NCBI GenBank assembly: GCA_021846515.1
Contig: JAJZWU010000009.1
Location: 1,587 to 65,586, forward strand
Reading direction: 5' to 3'
DNA: 64,000 nucleotides
Source of the DNA: Actinomycetes bacterium
Lineage (GTDB): Bacteria > Actinomycetota > Acidimicrobiia > Acidimicrobiales > JAMCPL01
Both the position numbers and the translations under genes were made by a program. Numbering within the stretch: position 1 is the stretch's first letter; the number at the start of each line of letters is the position of its first letter. The notes beneath the pieces are model-generated. The model was not told the DNA's origin and ran no database searches. It saw nothing but the letters and a program-made list of their open reading frames with translations. Shown piece by piece: positions 7,879 to 57,946 of the stretch.

Positions 7879-7952
7879 GTAGGCGAGATAGTGAGTACGC
7901 AACGAAATACAACAGGGCTGGGTGGGTTATACGGGTAGAGGTGCGATAGGGT

Positions 7953-9140
7953 ATGGCGGGCGTAACAGGTAGTCCAGAGAGCCAGCCTCCATTGCTGGTA
8001 GTGAAAAATCTTACTACATGCTACGGGATGCCAGCCAACCCAAATAATGAGGCGGAAGCGGGTGGCGGGGTGAGTGGTGGAATGGAAGTGGACGGCGACG
8101 GGCTGAGCAGTAGCAAAAGAGTCAAGGGGAACGAGACAAACAACAGTGACGGAGTAAGGGCGAGTGGCGAGAGATCCAATGGCATAAAAGCGGTTGATAA
8201 CGTCTCTTTTACCTTACATGCCGGAGAAATAATGTCAATAGTTGGCGAATCCGGATCAGGAAAGACTGCACTGTGCCGATCAATAATGCGACTCTTCCCT
8301 ACCGCTCAGGTGCAGCTAACCGGTAAAGTGATCCTTAATGGAAAGGACCTGCTGTCGATGGATAACTCCCAATTACGCCAAGTGTGGGGGCTGGAAATGT
8401 CGATAGTCTTCCAGGATCCCATGACATCGCTCAATCCAGTCATGAGAATAGGGAATCAGGTCTCTGAGGGAATGAGAAAGCGTCAGGGTATGTCAAAAAA
8501 GCACTCTCGCGAATTGGCAATATCTTTGTTGAGGTCGGTAGGGATACCAGATGCCGAAGCGCGATACAGACAATATCCGATACAACTTTCAGGCGGCTTG
8601 CGCCAGAGGGTTGCTATAGCTATCGCGATATCGTGCAACCCATCCCTACTTATACTGGACGAGCCTACTACCGGCCTAGACGCTACCATACAGGCACATA
8701 TCATTGATCTAATTGCCAATCTGGTAACAAAACGCAGTATGGCAGCTATATTCGTTACTCACGACATCGGTATAGCTGCGAGCATCTCTTCTTCGATGGC
8801 CGTCATGTACGCTGGATCCATCGTAGAATATGGTGCGACAGAAGATGTAATCAGGCATCCCACCATGAGGTATACCAGCGCCCTACTCAATACCGCACCA
8901 AAGCTGGATGCCATACCCCATACTCGCCTCAAAACAATTCCAGGACAGCCGCCCAACCTGGCTGCACTTGGTAATGGGTGCCCGTTTGAACCCCGCTGCG
9001 ATGCCCCCATAGATCGCTGCAGCTACGAACGACCACAATTGACAGACTGTGATACACAGCCAGCTACACATCTGTGCGCCTGCTGGAACCCTCGCATGCC
9101 TGCAAACGTACCCGAAAATATAGAGGAATCCAGCCAATGA
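7953..9140 (+). CDS. ABC transporter ATP-binding protein (DppD/OppD-like) with an atypical ~50-aa N-terminal insertion
   Basis: Walker A GESGSGKT, signature LSGGLRQR, Walker B LLILDEPTTGLD and an oligopeptide-type C-terminal domain (GCPFEPRC). Confidence 0.9.
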   Translation: MAGVTGSPESQPPLLVVKNLTTCYGMPANPNNEAEAGGGVSGGMEVDGDGLSSSKRVKGNETNNSDGVRASGERSNGIKAVDNVSFTLHAGEIMSIVGESGSGKTALCRSIMRLFPTAQVQLTGKVILNGKDLLSMDNSQLRQVWGLEMSIVFQDPMTSLNPVMRIGNQVSEGMRKRQGMSKKHSRELAISLLRSVGIPDAEARYRQYPIQLSGGLRQRVAIAIAISCNPSLLILDEPTTGLDATIQAHIIDLIANLVTKRSMAAIFVTHDIGIAASISSSMAVMYAGSIVEYGATEDVIRHPTMRYTSALLNTAPKLDAIPHTRLKTIPGQPPNLAALGNGCPFEPRCDAPIDRCSYERPQLTDCDTQPATHLCACWNPRMPANVPENIEESSQ

Positions 9141-15863: not shown

Positions 15864-16340
15864 ATGGATATCAAAGTCGAAACACAAACAAAATCAGCGT
15901 GTAATAATTTTTTTGAGGTATGGAAGGCGTTGATTAAGGTACAGAGGCTAATTGCACCTGCCCTAGAATCTGACCTTCAAGCCAGGCATGGCATAGGACT
16001 GAGTGAATACGAAGCCATGGAGGAGTTGCGTAATGCAGATGGTGGAAGAATGCGCATGAATGAACTGGCCGCCTCAGTTATGCTAACGCCGAGTGGCCTC
16101 ACGCGTCTGGTAGATAGACTGGAGGCAGATGGAATAGCTGTACGAGAATCCTGCCCGACAGACGGGCGCGGCTCACATGTGCGGATTACAGAAAAAGGCA
16201 TGTCCCTGCTTACGCGCGCGGAAGAGACCTACCGGAAAGATATCCAGAGCTATTTTGGTGAACAGTTTACCGGCGCCGCCGCAGTAATAGAAGCGTGCAA
16301 TCAAATAGTAGAGGCCACGCTATCAGGCAAGGCCGTATAG
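15864..16340 (+). CDS. MarR-family transcriptional regulator
   Basis: LSEYEAMEEL...MNELAASVMLTPSGLTRLVDRLEADGIAVR...DGRGSHVRITEKG. Confidence 0.88.
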   Translation: MDIKVETQTKSACNNFFEVWKALIKVQRLIAPALESDLQARHGIGLSEYEAMEELRNADGGRMRMNELAASVMLTPSGLTRLVDRLEADGIAVRESCPTDGRGSHVRITEKGMSLLTRAEETYRKDIQSYFGEQFTGAAAVIEACNQIVEATLSGKAV

Positions 16341-16345
16341 AAAGC

Positions 16346-16837
16346 TCAAACTATCCGGTAGGTCTGAACGGCGTGAGCCACTACGTTGCCGTCTGCATCA
16401 GTGGCAGTTATCTCCGAGAAGCTCAATTCCTTACCACGTTTGATACATTTGGCATGACAAATCAGGTCGCTCTTCTTGCATGCACCCACATATTGTATGG
16501 ACATTGCTACGGTAGATGCCCTCGTGCCTTTGTTGAAATCGTGTTTTGACCACACTGCCGCAGCTCCTGCCGTATCCATGACTGCCGCGACCACCCCACC
16601 ATGATAATAGATGCCGTCATTTGTAAGATCATAGCGAAATGGTAGACGCATTGTCGCCTCGTCGGGAATGTATCTTTCCATAGATACCCCTATGCTCTTT
16701 ATATAAGGCGTATCAAGCATGAACTTGGGTATTGCTTGACGATATGACTCCTGCTCTTCTTCGCTGATGCCCTTCTTCGCACTGTCCCTAGAATTCAGTG
16801 TCTCGTTATTATCTCCAACCATCCGTTCTCCTTCCAT
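16346..16837 (-). CDS. PaaI-family (hotdog fold) thioesterase
   Basis: The size matches, and the GGVVAAVMDTAGAAAV motif is typical of 4HBT/PaaI thioesterases. Confidence 0.8.
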   Translation of the reverse strand: MEGERMVGDNNETLNSRDSAKKGISEEEQESYRQAIPKFMLDTPYIKSIGVSMERYIPDEATMRLPFRYDLTNDGIYYHGGVVAAVMDTAGAAAVWSKHDFNKGTRASTVAMSIQYVGACKKSDLICHAKCIKRGKELSFSEITATDADGNVVAHAVQTYRIV

Positions 16838-16996
16838 CTATACCTTTCGTTATACATGTTCTCGCCCTCTACGCAAGCAACCGTTGCGCTAGTGGCAGCT
16901 AGCTGGCTAAGCGCCCTCTTGCCAATAAACAGCAGGACATAACCGCTATTTAATCCGGTGCCCAGTTAAGCTATTGCTACTATATAAGTTGCGAGA

Positions 16997-17025
16997 TTGA
17001 CCTAATTGACTAATCAGTCTATTAT
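16997..17025 (+). promoter_or_regulatory. Candidate promoter TTGACC-N17-TATTAT, ~300 nt upstream of the acyl-CoA dehydrogenase gene
   Basis: -35 at 16997-17002 and -10 at 17020-17025. It would give a ~295-nt C-depleted leader. Confidence 0.35.
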
Positions 17026-17326
17026 ATACTTACACATTGTACAAGCTCCACTCGGCGGTACGGAGAATAGGGTAAAACTGTTGCTTGGAGGCGCGATAGG
17101 AGACGGAGAAGACAGGGATGGAACTAAAAGAAGCCGTAAAGGCAGAATGAGGATATGGGGCAAGTTTGACAATAGCAAACTGCTGGAAAGAGGAAGTGGC
17201 AGACGAAGCTGAGTGGTTTGGGAGGTAGAAGGCGGATGCAGTGTGTATTGCGTTAGCAAGACAGTTGCATAAGAGGTGCGATAGAAGGTAGGAAACGGAT
17301 AATGACAATTACACAAAGGAGACAAA

Positions 17327-18580
17327 ATGCTGGGGAAGATTGAGGATACAGAGGAACAGGCTGCTTTCCGCAAAGAGTTCAGGGAATGGCTGATAGGAGA
17401 GTTGGGCAGCGCATGGATAGATGCTGTCGACCGTGGAGACGAGGATTCCTTTGAAAAAGCTAAGAACGATGCAAATTGGAACTTCCTGACATGGATGACC
17501 ACTATCGGCCGTAGTCCATATGCAGCTCCGCTATGGCCAAAAGAATACGGAGGTCTCTCTGGTGAACCCTGGATGCAACAGGTAATTAGGTCAGAATTGT
17601 CAAACTATCGCTTACCAATATTTGGGGCAAACCTGCTTGGAGTTGGCTTGGCTGGGCCAACAATAATAGAACACGGTACCGAAGAACAGAAGAAGCGTTA
17701 CCTGTCAAAGATACTGAGTGGGGAGGAAATCTGGTGCCAGCTATTTTCTGAGCCGGGCTCCGGATCAGATCTTGCATCGCTGGCCACTAGGGCGGTAAGA
17801 GATGGAGATGAGTGGGTTGTAAATGGGCAGAAGGTATGGACTACAATTGCCCAATTCGCCAAATTCGGAATGCTACTGGCAAGAACGGATCCCGACGCTC
17901 CAAAGCATGATGGCTTGACCTACTTCATACTGGACATGAAGACTCCCGGCGTAGATGTCCGCCCATTGAAACAACTTACAGGCTCCTCTGAGTTCAACGA
18001 AGTATTCTTTACAGACGTTCGGATTCCCGACGAGAACAGAGTAGGCAATGTCGGCGACGGTTGGAGATGCGCCAGAACCACTTTGATGAATGAGCGGAGC
18101 GCTCTATCGGGTATATCCCTGGATCCTGTCTCCATCTTTGGCGGCACCAGGCGTGACCCCTGGCAGACGTTTCTTGACAGCCTGCCAAATAAATCAGATC
18201 CGGTCGCCAGACAACAGATAGCCAGGATGTATATAGAATCAGAAGTCAAGGAAATTACAAACTTCCGGGCAAATGCAGCCAGAATGAGAGGCGCTCAGCC
18301 AGGACCGGAAGGTAGCGTCAATAAGGTGTTTAACGCAGAATACAACCAGCGCAAATCCTCATTTGCCATCAACGCCAATGGCATGAACGGCGTAGCATGG
18401 CTTCCCGACGATAAGGAGCCTGAAGCAAGAACTCAGACATTCTTACGAGCAAGAGCAGCTACAATTGAGGGTGGCACATCAGAGGTACTGCGCAACCAGA
18501 TGGCGGAAAGAATTCTCGGCCTCCCCAGGGATCCAGATGTAGATAAAGGAGTTCCCTGGACGGAGATAAAACGAAACTAA
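17327..18580 (+). CDS. Acyl-CoA dehydrogenase family protein
   Basis: LFSEPGSGSDLASL, VNGQKVWTT, and the C-terminal IEGGTSEVLRNQMAE. Confidence 0.9.
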   Translation: MLGKIEDTEEQAAFRKEFREWLIGELGSAWIDAVDRGDEDSFEKAKNDANWNFLTWMTTIGRSPYAAPLWPKEYGGLSGEPWMQQVIRSELSNYRLPIFGANLLGVGLAGPTIIEHGTEEQKKRYLSKILSGEEIWCQLFSEPGSGSDLASLATRAVRDGDEWVVNGQKVWTTIAQFAKFGMLLARTDPDAPKHDGLTYFILDMKTPGVDVRPLKQLTGSSEFNEVFFTDVRIPDENRVGNVGDGWRCARTTLMNERSALSGISLDPVSIFGGTRRDPWQTFLDSLPNKSDPVARQQIARMYIESEVKEITNFRANAARMRGAQPGPEGSVNKVFNAEYNQRKSSFAINANGMNGVAWLPDDKEPEARTQTFLRARAATIEGGTSEVLRNQMAERILGLPRDPDVDKGVPWTEIKRN

Positions 18581-19353: not shown

Positions 19354-19605
19354 ATATTGTTATTTTAGCAGGCTTCTGCTTGCAATAGATAACGGACGCA
19401 GGTGGGGTGGGTGAACAGCCATTGGTGGCGGTTTGGATGTGAGCAACGGATGCAGGCGGACAGAAGGGATGTGGGCGGACAGGAAGCACAGATGACAGAG
19501 GGGGTTTACGGCAGTAGGATAGGTATAGACGACAGAAGGTACGGAAATTATGGAACCATGCCCGGCTGAATGGCGCTATAGCCAAATTTCGGTCATTATA
19601 TATAT

Positions 19606-27279: not shown

Positions 27280-28410
27280 CTACCGCAATACGTACGGTAC
27301 GTATACACGTACGGTACATCCACGACCTGGAGAGGAATGTACGTATAGGTTTCCGCCTATGAGCTGGGCACGCTCGTGCATACCGAGCATACCAAAATGC
27401 TCGCCGTGATACACTCCTACGACCCCCTGGTGATTGCTACCGCCAATCAGAAAGTCGTCCGATACAGGGAATCCAATCCCGTCATCCGCCACCTCCAGCT
27501 CTACGCCGGATCCACCAAATCGAAGCCTGACATAGCCATGACGGGCACGGGAGTGCCGCTGTACATTTGACAACGCCTCCTGAGCGATACGGTATAGAGC
27601 CAACTCGATGTCGTCGGGAAGATGTAATGGCTCGCTACCCACCTCTTCAAACTCTACGTCAAGGATTTCGTTGGACACATCTTCTGCCAATCTCGACAAC
27701 GCCACCTCCAAGCCCAAATCCTGCAATGCCGGAGGGCGAAGTCCCTTGACCACCTCACGCAGTCTCCTTACCGACTCATCCACGAGTTGGCGCGATTGAA
27801 TAAATGCCTCTTTTGCGTCCAAGGGGATCTCAGATGACTTGGCAACTGAAGATATTTTTCTACCCAGCTGTATCAAGGTCTGCAATGTCTCATCATGTAA
27901 CTCTCTGGCTATACGGCTACGCTCCTCTTCAAGGCTGGAGAGTACAGTTTGGGCATATGCCTCGACTTTTTCCCTGGCAGCGCTGTAGGCATCGTTCAGG
28001 TCGTGTTCACGTTGCATCCTCCAGCCAGCAAACATTCCTACCGCAACAACCACACCTATCATGACTATATCGCCCGACATATCAAGAAATTCGCCGTGAC
28101 TATAGTCTGTTACGAAATCGGGCAGCCATAGGATGGTCACCCAAGCAGTAAGCAGAGTCGAACCAACGAATCCAAATCTTAATGCTCCATACAGTATCGG
28201 CAGTATAAGTAAGGCAGGTATCACGCTATCGGGAAAGATATGAAACGAGTGACTGTCGAGAAACATTTGAGCACCCACTACCGCTGCACATACCCCAGTT
28301 ACCAGCCAAAACCTCCAATTCCTGAGTGGAGCAAGCGCCATACCCCTAGATATGAGCATCTCCCGCCTCCTCCGTCTATCTATAGCTCTTACCCCCACCT
28401 GCCTTATCAT
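27280..28410 (-). CDS. Sensor histidine kinase, HisKA_3/NarX-DesK type, membrane-embedded sensor (HK1)
   Basis: N-terminal TM bundle, H-box RIARELHDETLQ, HATPase_c N-box (AQEALSNVQRHS) and G-box (DDGIGF). Confidence 0.88.
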   Translation of the reverse strand: MIRQVGVRAIDRRRRREMLISRGMALAPLRNWRFWLVTGVCAAVVGAQMFLDSHSFHIFPDSVIPALLILPILYGALRFGFVGSTLLTAWVTILWLPDFVTDYSHGEFLDMSGDIVMIGVVVAVGMFAGWRMQREHDLNDAYSAAREKVEAYAQTVLSSLEEERSRIARELHDETLQTLIQLGRKISSVAKSSEIPLDAKEAFIQSRQLVDESVRRLREVVKGLRPPALQDLGLEVALSRLAEDVSNEILDVEFEEVGSEPLHLPDDIELALYRIAQEALSNVQRHSRARHGYVRLRFGGSGVELEVADDGIGFPVSDDFLIGGSNHQGVVGVYHGEHFGMLGMHERAQLIGGNLYVHSSPGRGCTVRVYVPYVLR

Positions 28411-29168
28411 TCACCCGAGGGCGATGTACCAGTGGGCGTAGACGAGAATGTTGTGACAGGAACGCTGGATGCATCAGGGCTGGAGGCATTCTGGGGCGGA
28501 TTTGATGAGCCAACCAATCCCCTCTCCATTGCAAGCACAGATAATTTGGTTCTTGAGTTAACTCCGAGTTTGTCAAATATATGGCGTATATGGGTTTCCA
28601 CAGTACGCCTCGATATTTCCAATCTGTCAGCTATCTCCTTATTCGGCAGCCCCTCCACTACCATTTTTACCACCTCCATCTCGCGATCAGACAGGGTGGA
28701 TGGCTGCCCGCTCGGCTCCGGGGGAAGCTCGTCTGTGCCCTCCCTGAGTCCCATTGCAAGCGATCTATCTACCACTACCGCCCCCGACCTCAAGGCATAT
28801 ACTGCATTTATAATCTCTTCATCCGGAGCGCTTTTCAGCAAATAGCCAGAGACTCCCGCAGAAAGAGCTGACCTGAGATAATCGCTATCTCCATACGCAG
28901 ACAGGATAAGCAATCTCATCCGTGGAAACTCTTTTGACAGCCTCCTCGAAAACTCTATGCCGTTCTCACCCGGCAAACGGACATCGAGCACCATAATGTC
29001 GGGCTGGCTGTCTGTCAGCAGTTCGTAGGCATCCTTCGTATTGCTGGCCTCTCCTATCACCACGACATCGCCGCTCTCCTCAAGAATCTCCCTTGTACCT
29101 TGACGGACTACCGGATGATCGTCCACCAAAATTACGCTAAGAGGATGATGTTCCACAAGCATATCCAC
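28407..29168 (-). CDS. NarL/LuxR-family response regulator (RR1)
   Basis: Receiver domain (ILVDDHPVVR...MVLDVRLPGENG...GYLLKS) and LuxR HTH (LSDREMEVVKMVVEGLPNKEIADRLEISRRTVETH). There is a Ser/Pro/Thr-rich C-terminal tail. It overlaps HK1 by 4 nt. Confidence 0.9.
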   Translation of the reverse strand: MDMLVEHHPLSVILVDDHPVVRQGTREILEESGDVVVIGEASNTKDAYELLTDSQPDIMVLDVRLPGENGIEFSRRLSKEFPRMRLLILSAYGDSDYLRSALSAGVSGYLLKSAPDEEIINAVYALRSGAVVVDRSLAMGLREGTDELPPEPSGQPSTLSDREMEVVKMVVEGLPNKEIADRLEISRRTVETHIRHIFDKLGVNSRTKLSVLAMERGLVGSSNPPQNASSPDASSVPVTTFSSTPTGTSPSGE

Positions 29169-29368
29169 CTTCTCTCACTGGGTATATAAATTATACCACT
29201 ATCCATTATGTGTTCTACTTCATTATGCTACAACAACATCGCATGCACAACGGTACCATCACTGATATCCTATGCGTGTTTACCCCGATTTTCCTCATAG
29301 GCATTTACCGCAATACTGGTCTTTCTACCCAGGACGACCCTAATGGATGGAGCAGGCACCTGAGATGG

Positions 29369-42990: not shown

Positions 42991-44447
<1,457 letters not shown>

Positions 44448-44525
44448 TCATCTATTGATGGCTTACTTTGCATATTCATCAGCATCTCTCGCACCTTGGA
44501 ACTGTTCACTGGATGATCATTCTGC

Positions 44526-47078: not shown

Positions 47079-47259
47079 CTCCTTTCACGCTAGTAATCCT
47101 ACTCAACTCCACCTGCAGTGCCCCATACAATGTCTGGCATATCTCTGCCACCTCTCTGCACTATGCCATCTCCCATTTGGAACCACTGCATTAAAGCAGG
47201 CATACCCACAGATGCAGATGCGCCCATAGCACCGGCAAGAGCACGGCAACTTATCATAG

Positions 47260-56520: not shown

Positions 56521-56843
56521 CTTATTCACCCATGCAGATTCTATGTCCCCTCAAAACGTCGTCTCTGGCGGCTTGGGCGATGCTATGACTGACAAAACCT
56601 GGATTTATCCTTATTATGCCGTCCCATACCGTCTGAGCTGGGTTCTCCACAGCATGGTGACGATACAAAATACCTGGTAATAGGCACTTGACAGAGGGGT
56701 TACAATAATGTATGGAAGCATTCCAATTTACTCTGGATTAACGTGCATAATTCAAGTACCTGAAGAGGTGCCTCTATGCATTTAGCTGGGTTCGTTTGAT
56801 CGCATGAGATGGCGGCCGTAAGAATTAAAATAATAATTGGCAA

Positions 56844-56942
56844 GTGGCAGGGCAGTCGAATGATGACCGCTACGTCCGTGGTGGCGGTGGTCAAACCCAA
56901 AGTGGGAGGCCGGTGGCAGGGCAGCCGGATGATGACCGCTAC
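56844..56942 (+). repeat. Two 30-nt direct repeats (28/30 identical) separated by 39 nt, upstream of the sigma factor gene
   Basis: 56844-56873 is GTGGCAGGGCAGTCGAATGATGACCGCTAC. 56913-56942 is GTGGCAGGGCAGCCGGATGATGACCGCTAC. Confidence 0.9.
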
Positions 56943-57007
56943 TATAGAGTGTCGATAGTGACAGTAGAGACGGCTGGTAGAGAGAGAAAGGTAGTAAAGG
57001 ATAGAAG

Positions 57008-57946
57008 TTGGCCAAAGAACGCATAGATAGGGACGATGAAGATCTTGTCAGGCTATACCTTACTGATATAGGTCAGTATATGCTGCTGAGCAAGGATGAC
57101 GAAGTGCATCTCGCTCAGATCATGGAGATGGGGAGGGAAGCGCAGAAAGAGATTGAGTCTGGAGCCAAGAACCTTACCCCTGCGCGTAAAAGGGAACTAA
57201 GGCGAATGCTACGCCAGGGTGAAGAAGCTCAACAGGCATTCGTTAAATCAAATCTACGCTTGGTCGTGTCAATCGCCAAGAAATACCAGGCATCGGGACT
57301 GCCACTACTCGACCTGATACAGGAAGGCAACTTGGGTTTAATGCATGCAGTCGAAAAATTCGACTGGAGAAAAGGTTTTAAGTTTTCCACTTACGCGACA
57401 TGGTGGATCCGTCAGGCCATAACCAGAGGTATAGCAAACACCGGTAGAACCATTAGGTTGCCCGTACATGCAGGTGACACCCTGACTCGCGTACAAAAAG
57501 CACAGGCCAGGCTGGAGCTTAAATTGGGTAGACCTCCCACGCTGGACGAGTTGGGTCTTGAAGTGGAGTTGGCAGGGGATAAACTGGTAGAAGCTCTAAG
57601 ATTCAGATCTGAGCCGCTTTCTCTGTCAGATCCATTAAGAGAGGACGGTGATGCGGAACTGGGAGATGTGGTAGAGGATCGCTCAGCGGAATCACCCTTT
57701 GAAGTCGCCGCTATGACTATGCTGCCCGAAGAGATAGATAAGCTTCTATCCCCGCTTGATGAACGCGAACGTGAGATACTGAAGCTGAGGTTTGGATTGG
57801 ATCGCGGAGAATCGCGAACTCTCGAAGAAGTCGGAGAATACTTCAATCTGACCAGAGAAAGAATTCGCCAGATAGAAGCCAGAGCGATGTCCAAGCTCCG
57901 TCATCCATCTTCAGATACCGGAGCAAGGGATCTGCTTACGGTCTAA
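57008..57946 (+). CDS. RNA polymerase sigma-70 family factor, group 1/2-like (SigB-like size, 312 aa)
   Basis: Region 2 DLIQEGNLGLMHAVEKFDWRKGFKFSTYATWWIRQAITR, region 3, and region 4 TLEEVGEYFNLTRERIRQIEARAMSKLRH. TTG start. Confidence 0.9.
   Translation: MAKERIDRDDEDLVRLYLTDIGQYMLLSKDDEVHLAQIMEMGREAQKEIESGAKNLTPARKRELRRMLRQGEEAQQAFVKSNLRLVVSIAKKYQASGLPLLDLIQEGNLGLMHAVEKFDWRKGFKFSTYATWWIRQAITRGIANTGRTIRLPVHAGDTLTRVQKAQARLELKLGRPPTLDELGLEVELAGDKLVEALRFRSEPLSLSDPLREDGDAELGDVVEDRSAESPFEVAAMTMLPEEIDKLLSPLDEREREILKLRFGLDRGESRTLEEVGEYFNLTRERIRQIEARAMSKLRHPSSDTGARDLLTV

Follow-up and report, generated by a model that had tools for sequence, protein, structure and literature searches.

The DNA analysed here (the window) is a stretch of 64,000 nt from an uncultured member of the Acidimicrobiales, and on its plus strand it carries an acyl-CoA dehydrogenase (ACAD) gene at 17327-18580. 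The 417-aa product has the Pfam domains Acyl-CoA_dh_N, _M and _1, and its orthologues are found across the Acidimicrobiales. A gene for a 4HBT-type thioesterase (16346-16837, minus strand) diverges from it, an arrangement that is maintained in distant relatives; on the minus strand, C is scarce in the region upstream of the thioesterase (about 16838-16900). In front of the ACAD gene is a candidate sigma-70-type promoter, TTGACC-N17-TATTAT (16997-17025, plus strand), which agrees with the consensus at 10 of 12 positions. It is 95% identical over 55 nt in a sister species of the same genus (G003; the genome under study is G000), despite the saturation of four-fold sites between the two, and it is recognisable in G002 too. 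A TTGACC-N3-TTGACT direct repeat and the imperfect palindrome GACTAATCAGTC within it resemble an operator. Finally, a Shine-Dalgarno (SD) sequence, AAGGAG, can be read at 17316-17321 (plus strand), 5 nt 5' of the ATG, and both G003 and G005 have this AAGGAG as well.

A first-pass annotation of this DNA had proposed both the promoter and a long leader extending from it to the ACAD start codon. The promoter is well supported by its conservation, and the region does indeed have the appearance of a long leader. With transcription presumed to start about 7 nt past the -10 element, the 5' UTR would be about 295 nt long (17032-17326, plus strand). Both this start site and the leader status rest on the conserved promoter match; the segment is most likely an untranslated leader of the ACAD mRNA.

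The composition of this segment is its most conspicuous property. Between 17040 and 17326 the sense strand has A 35.2 / C 13.2 / G 34.5 / T 17.1%, i.e. 70% purine and a G>C skew of +0.45. The claim of a C-poor plus strand is confirmed; T, at 17%, is depleted as well. The presumed 5' UTR as a whole is likewise 13% C and 70% purine. It folds weakly, as would be expected from the earlier description: the minimum free energy (MFE) is -65 kcal/mol against -90.5 +/- 13 kcal/mol for random genomic 314-mers, which is the 2nd percentile and weaker than 98% of them, with z = -1.6 against its own shuffles. The reverse complement of the leader has an MFE of only -38 kcal/mol, so the removal of G would reduce structure more than the removal of C. 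The only duplication in the leader is a 15-nt direct repeat, with one copy at 17088-17102 (GAGGCGCGATAGGAG, plus strand) and a second 185 nt downstream at 17273-17287 (GAGGTGCGATAGAAG, plus strand). There is no detectable copy of the gene's own start junction in it, and TRF finds no tandem arrays. A G-quadruplex leader is rejected for G000 because its G-runs (5) are below expectation (11.9); the G003 leader is rich in G-runs.

The same annotation had treated this region as the largest of eight similar islands in the window. In the seven others the skew is real (12-17% C on the plus strand, or 13-17% G for the minus-strand islands), and for all of the listed islands the C-poor strand is, as claimed, the sense strand of the adjacent downstream gene. 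What these islands are differs from case to case. The one at 7879-7952 (plus strand) is a C-poor intercistronic spacer of 74 nt between the permease and OppD-type ATPase genes. That at 8028-8185 (plus strand) had been taken for a leader or spacer and turns out to be coding: it is a low-complexity insertion in the OppD-type ATPase, in frame and about 50 codons long; the translation reads LLVVKNLTTCYG, then the insert, then IKAVDNVSFTLHAGE, with the ABC_tran domain from residue 82. A C-poor region at 19354-19605 (plus strand), upstream of a CvpA/trypsin-like protease gene, contains a 19-nt unit three times (19391, 19445 and 19464). At 56688-57007 (plus strand) a conserved promoter-like block precedes the C-poor leader, some 300 nt long, of a sigma-70 family gene; the candidate promoter, TTGACA...TACAAT, is at 56688-56706, with a tentative -35/-10 assignment, and a 35-nt direct repeat (56839-56873 / 56908-56942) is specific to G000. 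The 181-nt atpH-atpA spacer (47079-47259, minus strand) is, as stated, C-poor on its G-rich sense strand, but it has only 57% purine, and a 52-codon ORF (47257-47099) nearly fills it. The two weaker cases on the minus strand are a 90-nt spacer with a weakly C-poor sense strand (44436-44525), upstream of a 481-aa gene that is the putative closing gene of the ATP synthase cluster, and a C-poor region at 29169-29340, upstream of the gene at 28407-29168. These supposed copies are independent cases of a weak genome-wide avoidance of C on the sense strand, plus the one coding insertion, and they are unrelated to the ACAD leader.

On the scale of the genome the feature is above chance: 124 stretches reach at least 68% purine over 150 nt, as against 13 in locally shuffled sequence. 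Only about a dozen of the 124 lie mainly over genes of the opposite strand. The one that holds the ACAD leader is 392 nt long, which makes it third by length in the genome and first among those that are mostly non-coding. Using home-made and rather crude gene calls, we find that 49 of 753 upstream regions are equally C-poor as the ACAD leader, and that among co-directional spacers of at least 100 nt, C is below 16% in 88 and G is below 16% in 8. In divergent spacers the sign of the skew reverses between the two halves (p = 3e-8), and the convergent ones have no such skew. The average effect is small: untranslated sense strands have a mean G>C skew of about +0.05 with a heavy tail, and upstream regions (+0.06) do not exceed coding DNA (+0.074; the coding sense strand has 27.5% G and 23.3% C). 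When the skew is anchored on 37 predicted promoters, it is about -0.03 on their upstream side and about +0.11 on their downstream side, a suggestive but weak change. The genome-wide effect is a heavy tail, not a rule. If one asks whether the same skew is present everywhere, the answer is affirmative for its direction and negative for its magnitude, the means of +0.04 to +0.11 being far short of the +0.45 found here. The ACAD leader is most likely the extreme of this mild genome-wide trend and not a copy of a repeated element.

Richness in G and A, which had been proposed as the shared trait of the islands, is not the common denominator in the genome; a shortage of C is (A 31 / C 12 / G 26 / T 30% in the C-poor leaders). 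The loss of C in these leaders is offset by gains of 4.8 points in A, 3.4 in G and 5.1 in T, and such a roughly proportional replacement would not result from C-to-T deamination alone. When 67 C-poor leaders are compared with dinucleotide shuffles, the only enriched k-mers are promoter words (TTGACA) and TGGCAG. Against mononucleotide shuffles there is no depletion of ATG in the C-poor leaders, and an earlier ATGT signal is not robust. The average upstream profile is most C-poor at -20..-1. C depletion does not increase with the length of the untranslated gap, which runs counter to what a simple Rho-avoidance model might predict. We found no prior description of C-poor bacterial leaders in the open-access literature.

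The comparison with related genomes is what separates composition from sequence. The ACAD leaders of G000 and G003 align no better than shuffles (z = 0.83, P = 0.26), and the four-fold sites of the adjacent CDS, at 47% identity, are saturated. Partial conservation is limited to ~20 nt at the 5' end and ~50 nt at the 3' end of the leader, and the central ~220 nt are unalignable. Yet the -10 element and the ATG are 307 nt apart in G000 and 300 nt apart in G003, the leader has 12.6% C in both species, and its purine content is 70% and 74%, respectively. Each leader also carries a direct repeat with one copy towards either end (15 nt in G000, 20-26 nt in G003), although the repeated words differ. 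The behavior of C extends beyond this gene. Among 46 orthologous upstream regions of G000 and G002 the C fractions correlate with r = 0.70, a value reached by no permutation, and in the poorly alignable half of these pairs rho is still 0.69, whereas the G fraction gives r = -0.13; purine content, like G, is not conserved between species. A strict filter requiring that all six frames be closed leaves 8 pairs, with r = 0.68 and p = 0.065. The C content of leaders is thus gene-specific and conserved across the genus and the G content is not, even if part of the correlation could stem from missed ORFs or from promoters that keep their positions, and with them the boundary between transcribed and untranscribed DNA. 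In G002 itself the ACAD gene is a pseudogene, and its leader is short and ordinary. Outside the genus, whose GC content is lowered relative to its order, the trait was not seen: scans of metagenomes and genome collections for closer relatives gave orthologues of at most 76% identity, all of them GC-rich and without the leader.

In our best reading, to which we give about even odds, the ACAD leader is a 5' UTR that is free of constraint on its sequence and constrained in its composition: it would be single-stranded, without the C>G windows that load Rho and with few RNase E sites. Transcription would begin at the conserved promoter with its operator-like repeat, and what appears to be maintained downstream is scant C, G in large excess over C, a high purine content and the length; neither a sequence nor a structure nor an ORF is conserved. 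Local duplication seems to be the source of new leader material, as in several of the islands. If the RNA of the leader is free of ribosome cover, its cytosines may become liabilities in three ways. They could form G-C pairs, including pairs with the G-rich Shine-Dalgarno sequence; they could create YC-rich loading sites for Rho, if the E. coli specificity applies here; and they could provide RN|CNU sites for an RNase E of the actinobacterial type, if the mycobacterial specificity does. Selection would then remove C from long untranslated segments, and the sequence would otherwise be left to drift.

Several observations on the two enzymes are pertinent. Rho requires RNA in which C exceeds G without interruption and which is rich in YC (Nadiras et al. 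2018, PMC6144790). The genome has a Rho gene, and in the ACAD leader none of 198 windows of 78 nt has C>G (the maximum of C-G is -11), whereas 30% of coding sense windows do; there are 4 YC dimers where 11.6 would be expected (P = 0.003). By its composition the leader contains no C>G window and few YC, and by analogy it may resist Rho loading. Mycobacterial RNase E cleaves single-stranded RNA 5' of C (RN|CNU), and 5' UTRs are enriched in its cleavage sites (Zhou et al. 2023, PMC10641625). An RNase E is encoded here (RNase E/G domain, 337 bits), and at the position of E. coli F67 it has a Val, as do the enzymes of M. smegmatis and M. tuberculosis; this single residue is suggestive of an enzyme of the mycobacterial type. 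RNCNT occurs once in the ACAD leader against 4.5 expected (P = 0.046), and its genome-wide ratio is 0.94-0.95, without significance in the C-poor set. There is a modest additional loss of UC genome-wide, and the other tests of context beyond plain C depletion are without significance; rho(TC) is 0.72 against a rho(GA) of 0.86. A wider claim can be built on these observations, namely that the genus writes its long untranslated mRNA with minimal C, that C is what RNase E and Rho read, and that leader C is a selected, gene-specific dial for mRNA survival and read-through that outlasts the saturation of neutral sites. We put this forward as speculation that is rather unlikely to hold.

A neutral origin for the leaders deserves the most serious consideration among the alternatives, and we regard it as possible, if on the unlikely side. 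Leaders would grow by duplication or slippage of the purine-rich, C-poor DNA near the SD, under a strand-biased mutation linked to transcription, and their composition would then reflect origin and mutation and not function. In its favor, several of the islands contain local direct repeats (35 nt twice at 56839/56908, 19 nt three times within 19391-19482, and 15 nt twice at 17088/17273), the ACAD leader of G002 has a 23-nt duplication that includes the SD sequence, and start junctions match their own upstream DNA by at least 12 nt in 11 genes, where 0 are expected. The enrichment of GGA and GGAGG words in the G003 leader, the C minimum of the average profile at -20..-1 and the drop in GC content of the genus relative to its order all fit such a history too. 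However, at the saturation seen in the four-fold sites a neutral stretch of 250 nt should have relaxed to about 23% C, the level of third codon positions, yet both species hold 12.6%. Moreover, T is depleted here and not enriched, nor is it the preferred replacement of the lost C elsewhere; recent junction duplications occur in genes other than the C-poor ones; there are no tandem arrays; and leader C, unlike leader G, is gene-specific and conserved.

An improbable alternative is that the leader is a specific cis-regulatory RNA, a platform for a protein, an sRNA or the 30S subunit (as a standby site or enhancer) that acts through purine or GGA motifs and steers ACAD translation or decay. The conserved length (300-307 nt), the pair of direct repeats near both ends in both species and the partly conserved ends (~20 nt and ~50 nt) could be taken in its favor, together with the GGA/GGAGG enrichment in G003. 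The motifs themselves are less encouraging. GGA words number 30 against 14.6 expected in the G003 leader and only 13 against 11.5 in that of G000, and the repeated words differ between the species. SD-like words are at chance in the ACAD leader of G000, and across the genome the C-poor leaders have somewhat fewer of them than expected (GGAGG 8 against 20.4), so the suggestion of a landing pad for ribosomes or sRNAs finds no support. A CsrA/RsmA-type GGA-rich leader or sponge was rejected, there being no match to PF02599 in this 92%-complete genome and GGA being enriched solely in G003. A structured leader (a riboswitch, T-box or r-protein leader) was likewise rejected: at the gathering score Rfam finds a single tRNA in the whole window, at E <= 1 it finds nothing in 16950-17400, no sequence or fold is conserved with G003, and the fold is weaker than that of nearly all genomic segments of its size.

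It is very improbable that the purine-rich stretch hides a coding sequence, either a small protein or an N-terminal extension of the ACAD. There are a 68-codon ORF with a TTG start at 17006-17212, a 47-codon ORF in G003 and an in-frame ATG at 17303, and long open frames are typical of purine-rich DNA. The ORFs of G000 and G003 nevertheless differ in position, frame and sequence (tblastx <=20 bits), in accord with the earlier view that the leader has no credible ORF; the 17006 ORF would start within the promoter, and in G003 there is no upstream ATG in frame and AAGGAG-N5-ATG is retained where the annotated gene starts.

The islands had also been linked by shared motifs and were thought to be possible relics of a dispersed element. 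The motif coordinates need corrections of 1-3 nt: GAGGYGCGATAG lies at 7938, 17088 and 17273, CGGATGCAG at 17233 and 19447, and GTGGCAG on the minus strand at 47145-47151. Most copies of these words lie in coding DNA. The genome has 547 of GTGGCAG (which contains TGGCAG and is over-represented generally), 188 of GCAGGTGG and 29 of CGGATGCAG, and their intergenic share is 11-17%, when about 14% of the genome is non-genic according to our gene calls. The repeated k-mers among the eight islands do exceed dinucleotide shuffles, because of one 35-nt duplication (56839/56908) and one 13-mer, AGAGGTGCGATAG, which is at 17272-17284 and reappears at 7937-7949, immediately upstream of the oppD start; a 12-mer in three copies with at most one mismatch is seen in 11 of 200 composition-matched shuffles. 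Common genome-wide words, a local duplication and a 13-mer do not amount to a family. When the leader is compared with the genome by BLAST (word size 9), it matches only itself, the next match having E = 0.5, and an all-against-all comparison of the 124 purine-rich islands links none of them to it. A true three-copy G-rich repeat family exists elsewhere in the genome (C10:27825, C44:157 and C44:1451), and TGGTGGCGGTGG was rejected as a link among G-rich islands (57 matches against 43 in the control). That all of the listed islands are relics of one mobile element is therefore effectively refuted, in spite of some shared short words: the genome BLAST is negative, the 13-mer is the only island-to-island match in the window, the motifs are at chance or common, the islands are leaders, spacers and one coding insertion, and the ACAD leader has no terminal inverted repeats, its sole repeat being the internal 15-nt direct repeat.

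If the reading of the leader as a composition-constrained 5' UTR is correct, selection would act in bacterial 5' UTRs on base composition as such, in the absence of any motif or fold, and this would join the recently found specificity of actinobacterial RNase E for cytidine, the compositional requirements of Rho loading and the old, unexplained phenomenon of purine loading. If it fails, the leader is an ordinary compositional outlier in a MAG. The lesson for annotators is that conspicuous purine-rich islands may share short words without being repeats or RNA genes.

With respect to known systems, the structure of bacterial mRNA is reduced over ~30-40 nt around start codons, and unstructured leaders enhance translation. 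The weak folding of the ACAD leader and the C minimum at -20..-1 in the average profile are reminiscent of this, but here some 300 nt are involved and it is C that is removed, although the removal of G would weaken the folding further. Actinobacterial Rho has an extra N-terminal insertion and perhaps relaxed preferences. The rut sites of Rho (PMC6144790) are described by the same variables as the leader (the C/G balance over ~78 nt, YC dimers and naked, unstructured RNA), and Rho is encoded here; the ACAD leader is nevertheless their mirror image, with no C>G window and 4 YC where 11.6 are expected. The parallel with mycobacterial RNase E (PMC10641625) is that the host is an actinobacterium with Val at the F67 equivalent, that untranslated leaders are the most-cut type of region and that fewer C means fewer sites. 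For this organism cleavage is predicted from sequence, and the depletion of RNCNU beyond the loss of C is borderline in the leader (1 against 4.5) and not significant genome-wide. Purine loading of transcripts has been proposed to limit RNA-RNA pairing. As treated by Bell and Forsdyke and by Lao and Forsdyke, along with Szybalski's transcription-direction rule, it is a mild transcript-wide bias, mainly of coding DNA. This genome shares with it a sense-strand excess of purine and of G over C that is genome-wide and oriented with transcription. The ACAD leader differs in being extreme (a skew of +0.45 and 70% purine) and confined to 300 nt of untranslated sequence, and in these genomes it is the C content that is conserved between species, and not that of G or of purine.

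The acyl-CoA dehydrogenase (ACAD) gene (17327-18580, plus strand) lies in the window (C42:1587-65586) of a 2.27-Mb assembly (50% GC, 77 contigs), and the named relatives of the organism's genes are Acidimicrobiales/Acidimicrobiaceae MAGs. It is preceded by a presumed 5' untranslated leader (~17032-17326), with a divergent 4HBT thioesterase gene (16346-16837, minus strand) on the other flank; a MarR gene occupies 15864-16340. The first-pass annotation had described a C-poor, G/A-rich stretch here, and 17040-17326 is indeed 35.2% A, 13.2% C, 34.5% G and 17.1% T. The promoter it proposed, TTGACC-N17-TATTAT at 16997-17025, matches 10 of the 12 consensus positions; no terminator-like site was found after it, and an AAGGAG Shine-Dalgarno (SD) sequence lies 5 nt upstream of the ATG. 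The composition of the leader exceeds chance. The genome holds 124 stretches in which purine reaches 68% or more over 150 nt, whereas locally shuffled sequence gives 13. The leader's own stretch, 392 nt when the first codons are counted, ranks third in length among the 124 and first among those that are mainly non-coding. In addition, 130-nt windows with C at or below 13% make up 0.2% of coding but 4.8% of upstream (-150..-21) windows (1.7% of the latter have G at or below 13%). The promoter region (16997-17040) also has a TTGACC-N3-TTGACY direct repeat plus an imperfect palindrome between -35 and -10. Both are kept at the loci of two same-genus genomes, G003 (L008) and G002 (L022), and more distant ACAD orthologues have perfect palindromes at the equivalent place (e.g. 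GTACTTGACCAAGCGGTCAAGTAC in locus L006); a TetR- or MarR-type repressor probably uses this site as its operator.

Genes were called by a home-made procedure (1694 genes, 86% coding). In the 481 co-directional intergenic regions that are 100 nt or longer, sense-strand C falls below 16% in 88 and sense-strand G below 16% in 8. C-poor islands span gene starts in sense orientation; in divergent spacers (177) the GC skew of the plus strand changes sign between the halves, being -0.045 on the left and +0.043 on the right (paired t = 5.8, p = 3e-8), and 57 convergent spacers show no skew. The genome-wide mean effect is small, however: the upstream skew at -150..-21 is +0.06, no larger than that of coding DNA (+0.074), and is about zero at -300..-171. 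The first-pass annotation's own refuting condition, an equal skew everywhere, thus has a mixed result: the direction is general, but the size is not, since the leader's skew of +0.45 ranks among the highest few per cent (C is as scarce in 49 of 753 upstream regions). The upstream distribution is unimodal and over-dispersed, and the C-poor leaders taken together (A 31, C 12, G 26, T 30%) are short of C, not necessarily G/A-rich. The genes behind non-coding purine-rich islands include two ACADs, a PilT-like ATPase, ABC components, a histidine kinase, a sigma factor and GroES; no functional theme was found among them (names read from translations). The genome's extreme is near the end of contig C23 (5337-5520, minus strand), ~185 nt that are almost C-free (1% C, A 35, G 34, T 30); directly 3' of it, on the minus strand as read, a TGTCCAC cluster resembles actinobacterial DnaA boxes, and the area is possibly a replication origin region.

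Eight islands in the window had been proposed as a family of leaders or spacers marked by shared motifs. Their skews are present as described, and in every one the C-poor strand is the sense strand of the next gene, but the set is heterogeneous. The island at 8028-8185 is coding, an in-frame insertion of ~50 codons in an OppD-type ATPase, between LLVVKNLTTCYG and IKAVDNVSFTLHAGE. That at 47079-47259, the atpH-atpA spacer, is only 57% purine and nearly filled by an ORF; this 52-codon frame (47099-47257, minus strand) begins 2 nt past the atpH stop and ends 20 nt short of the atpA start, in a spacer unusually long at 181 nt. Besides the ACAD leader, the others are intercistronic spacers (7879-7952 and 44436-44525) or upstream regions (19354-19605, 29169-29340 and 56840-57007). 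BLAST of the leader against the genome (word size 9) gave no match (best E = 0.5), none of the 124 purine-rich islands matches it, and the supposed family motifs are genome-wide, mainly coding words (GTGGCAG, 547 copies; GCAGGTGG, 188; CGGATGCAG, 29). The eight islands do have more k-mers in common than dinucleotide shuffles, because the sigma-factor leader contains a 35-nt local duplication (56839/56908, 89% identical, in this genome only) and because one 13-mer, AGAGGTGCGATAG, is shared. The 13-mer occurs at 7937-7949, 3 nt upstream of the oppD start, where its GAGG could act as SD, and at 17272-17284, 42 nt upstream of the ACAD start; in the whole genome it is confined to C-poor islands. 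Its sharing could reflect chance (~0.15 expected, a rough estimate) or the copying of initiation regions between genes. A three-copy 12-mer (at most one mismatch) arises in 5.5% of composition-matched shuffles. Having no BLAST relatives, inverted termini or tandem arrays that we could find, the leader was rejected as a repeat element. The genome does have a true three-copy repeat (C10:27825-28378, C44:157-564 and C44:1451-1823; 77-90% identity over 95-330 nt), C-poor with 43-51% G and with one copy directly 5' of a PilT-like ATPase gene; it has no sequence relation to the leader.

Comparison with relatives is the most informative line of the analysis. The G003 ACAD orthologue has 93% amino-acid identity and a promoter 95% identical over 55 nt; the coding sequences are 82% identical, with four-fold sites near saturation (47%, 43/91). 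The alignment score of the two leaders is within the range of dinucleotide shuffles (z = 0.83, P = 0.26) and they hold no conserved ORF, yet both have 12.6% C (purine 70% in G000, the genome under study, and 74% in G003), and from -10 element to ATG they measure 307 and 300 nt, respectively. C content and length are thus kept while the sequence drifts freely; for rough comparison with unconstrained composition, C is ~23% at third codon positions. The sigma-70 family gene at 57008 repeats this pattern of a conserved promoter-like block followed by a poorly alignable, C-poor leader (56688-57007). Its block, CACTTGACAGAGGGGTTACAATAATGTATG, ~300 nt upstream, is conserved across two genera (five genomes), and the leader 3' of it is poorly alignable and C-poor in the four same-genus genomes; TTGACA and TACAAT in the block are 7 nt apart, which makes them tentative candidates for the -35/-10 elements. 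Over 46 orthologous upstream regions, compared between G000 and 392 kb sampled from G002 (56% GC), the C fractions correlate at r = 0.70 (reached by 0 of 2000 permutations), and at rho = 0.69 in the poorly alignable half, whereas G fraction (r = -0.13) and purine content (r = 0.12) do not; the extra GC of G002 leaders goes into G, not C. Conserved promoter positions or missed ORFs may account for part of this correlation. Only 8 pairs pass a strict filter, with r = 0.68 and p = 0.065. In G000 and G002, 10-12% of leaders are strongly skewed; in G005 and G018, from outside the genus, the share is 2-3%, and leader C content there shows no correlation with that of G000. GC-rich relatives' ACAD orthologues (61-76% identity) have no such leader. 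Judged from these genomes, the trait fades outside the genus. The G002 ACAD (L022; G002:C36:52326-55376, reverse strand) is itself a pseudogene (residues ~84-226 deleted, plus an in-frame TAG), with a leader of only ~115 nt and a 23-nt duplication spanning the SD, two copies of ATCGCCATCGAGATGCAAAGGAG.

The best reading is that C has been purged by selection from ribosome-free RNA in this lineage. Cytosine there would be a liability, by exposing the RNA to cleavage, by letting Rho load and by pairing with G-rich SD sequences, and would therefore be removed while all else drifts; new leader material would plausibly arise by local duplication. RNase E of M. smegmatis and M. tuberculosis cleaves single-stranded RNA 5' of cytidine (RNCNU, cut between N and C), and such sites are more frequent than expected in 5' UTRs and intergenic RNA (PMC10641625). 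Rho requires unstructured, YC-rich RNA with uninterrupted C>G, and without a C>G bubble there is no termination (PMC6144790). G000 encodes Rho and RNase E/G, its RNase E having, as in these mycobacteria, Val at the position of E. coli F67. None of 198 78-nt leader windows has C>G (maximum C-G = -11); in coding sequence, 30% of sense-strand windows do. The leader has 4 YC dimers where 11.6 would be expected (P = 0.003) and 1 RNCNT where 4.5 would be (P = 0.046), with SD-like and GGA words at chance level. Genome-wide, past plain C depletion, only UC is further reduced (rho 0.72; its complement GA, 0.86), RNCNT shows no significant depletion, and C-poor leaders contain fewer GGAGG words than expected. 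What speaks against a simple model based on Rho or RNase E is that C depletion does not rise with spacer length and that mean upstream skew equals that of coding DNA. The weak folding anticipated by the first-pass annotation is borne out, unlike its dispersed element: the leader's MFE is -65.1 kcal/mol (314 nt; z = -1.6 against its own shuffles), whereas random 314-mers from the genome average -90.5 +/- 13.3 and only 2.3% of them are as weak. Lack of structure alone nevertheless fails to explain the missing C, because removing G instead would lower structure further (-38 kcal/mol for the reverse complement).

The main rival is a neutral origin of the leaders by local duplication, which we think less likely than selection. 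Local duplications are visible in several islands and over-represented at the gene junctions of G000: 11 of 753 start junctions (-35..+15) share 12 or more consecutive nt with their own upstream region, against 0 expected from swapped controls, so such duplication is recurrent. A solely mutational cause, namely C-to-T deamination on the non-template strand, is a poor fit because T is depleted in the ACAD leader (17.1%) and C-poor leaders in general replace lost C with A, G and T about proportionally.

With respect to known systems, a riboswitch-like RNA was tested for the ACAD leader and rejected, as was a CsrA-type leader, no CsrA being found in the genome and GGA words being at chance. We found no earlier description of such C-poor leaders in the open-access literature searched. 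The phenomenon is akin to purine loading (Szybalski's rule) and to unstructured leaders; it differs from both in that the bias is extreme, is confined to a 300-nt leader and has its C content specifically conserved across species without conservation of sequence.
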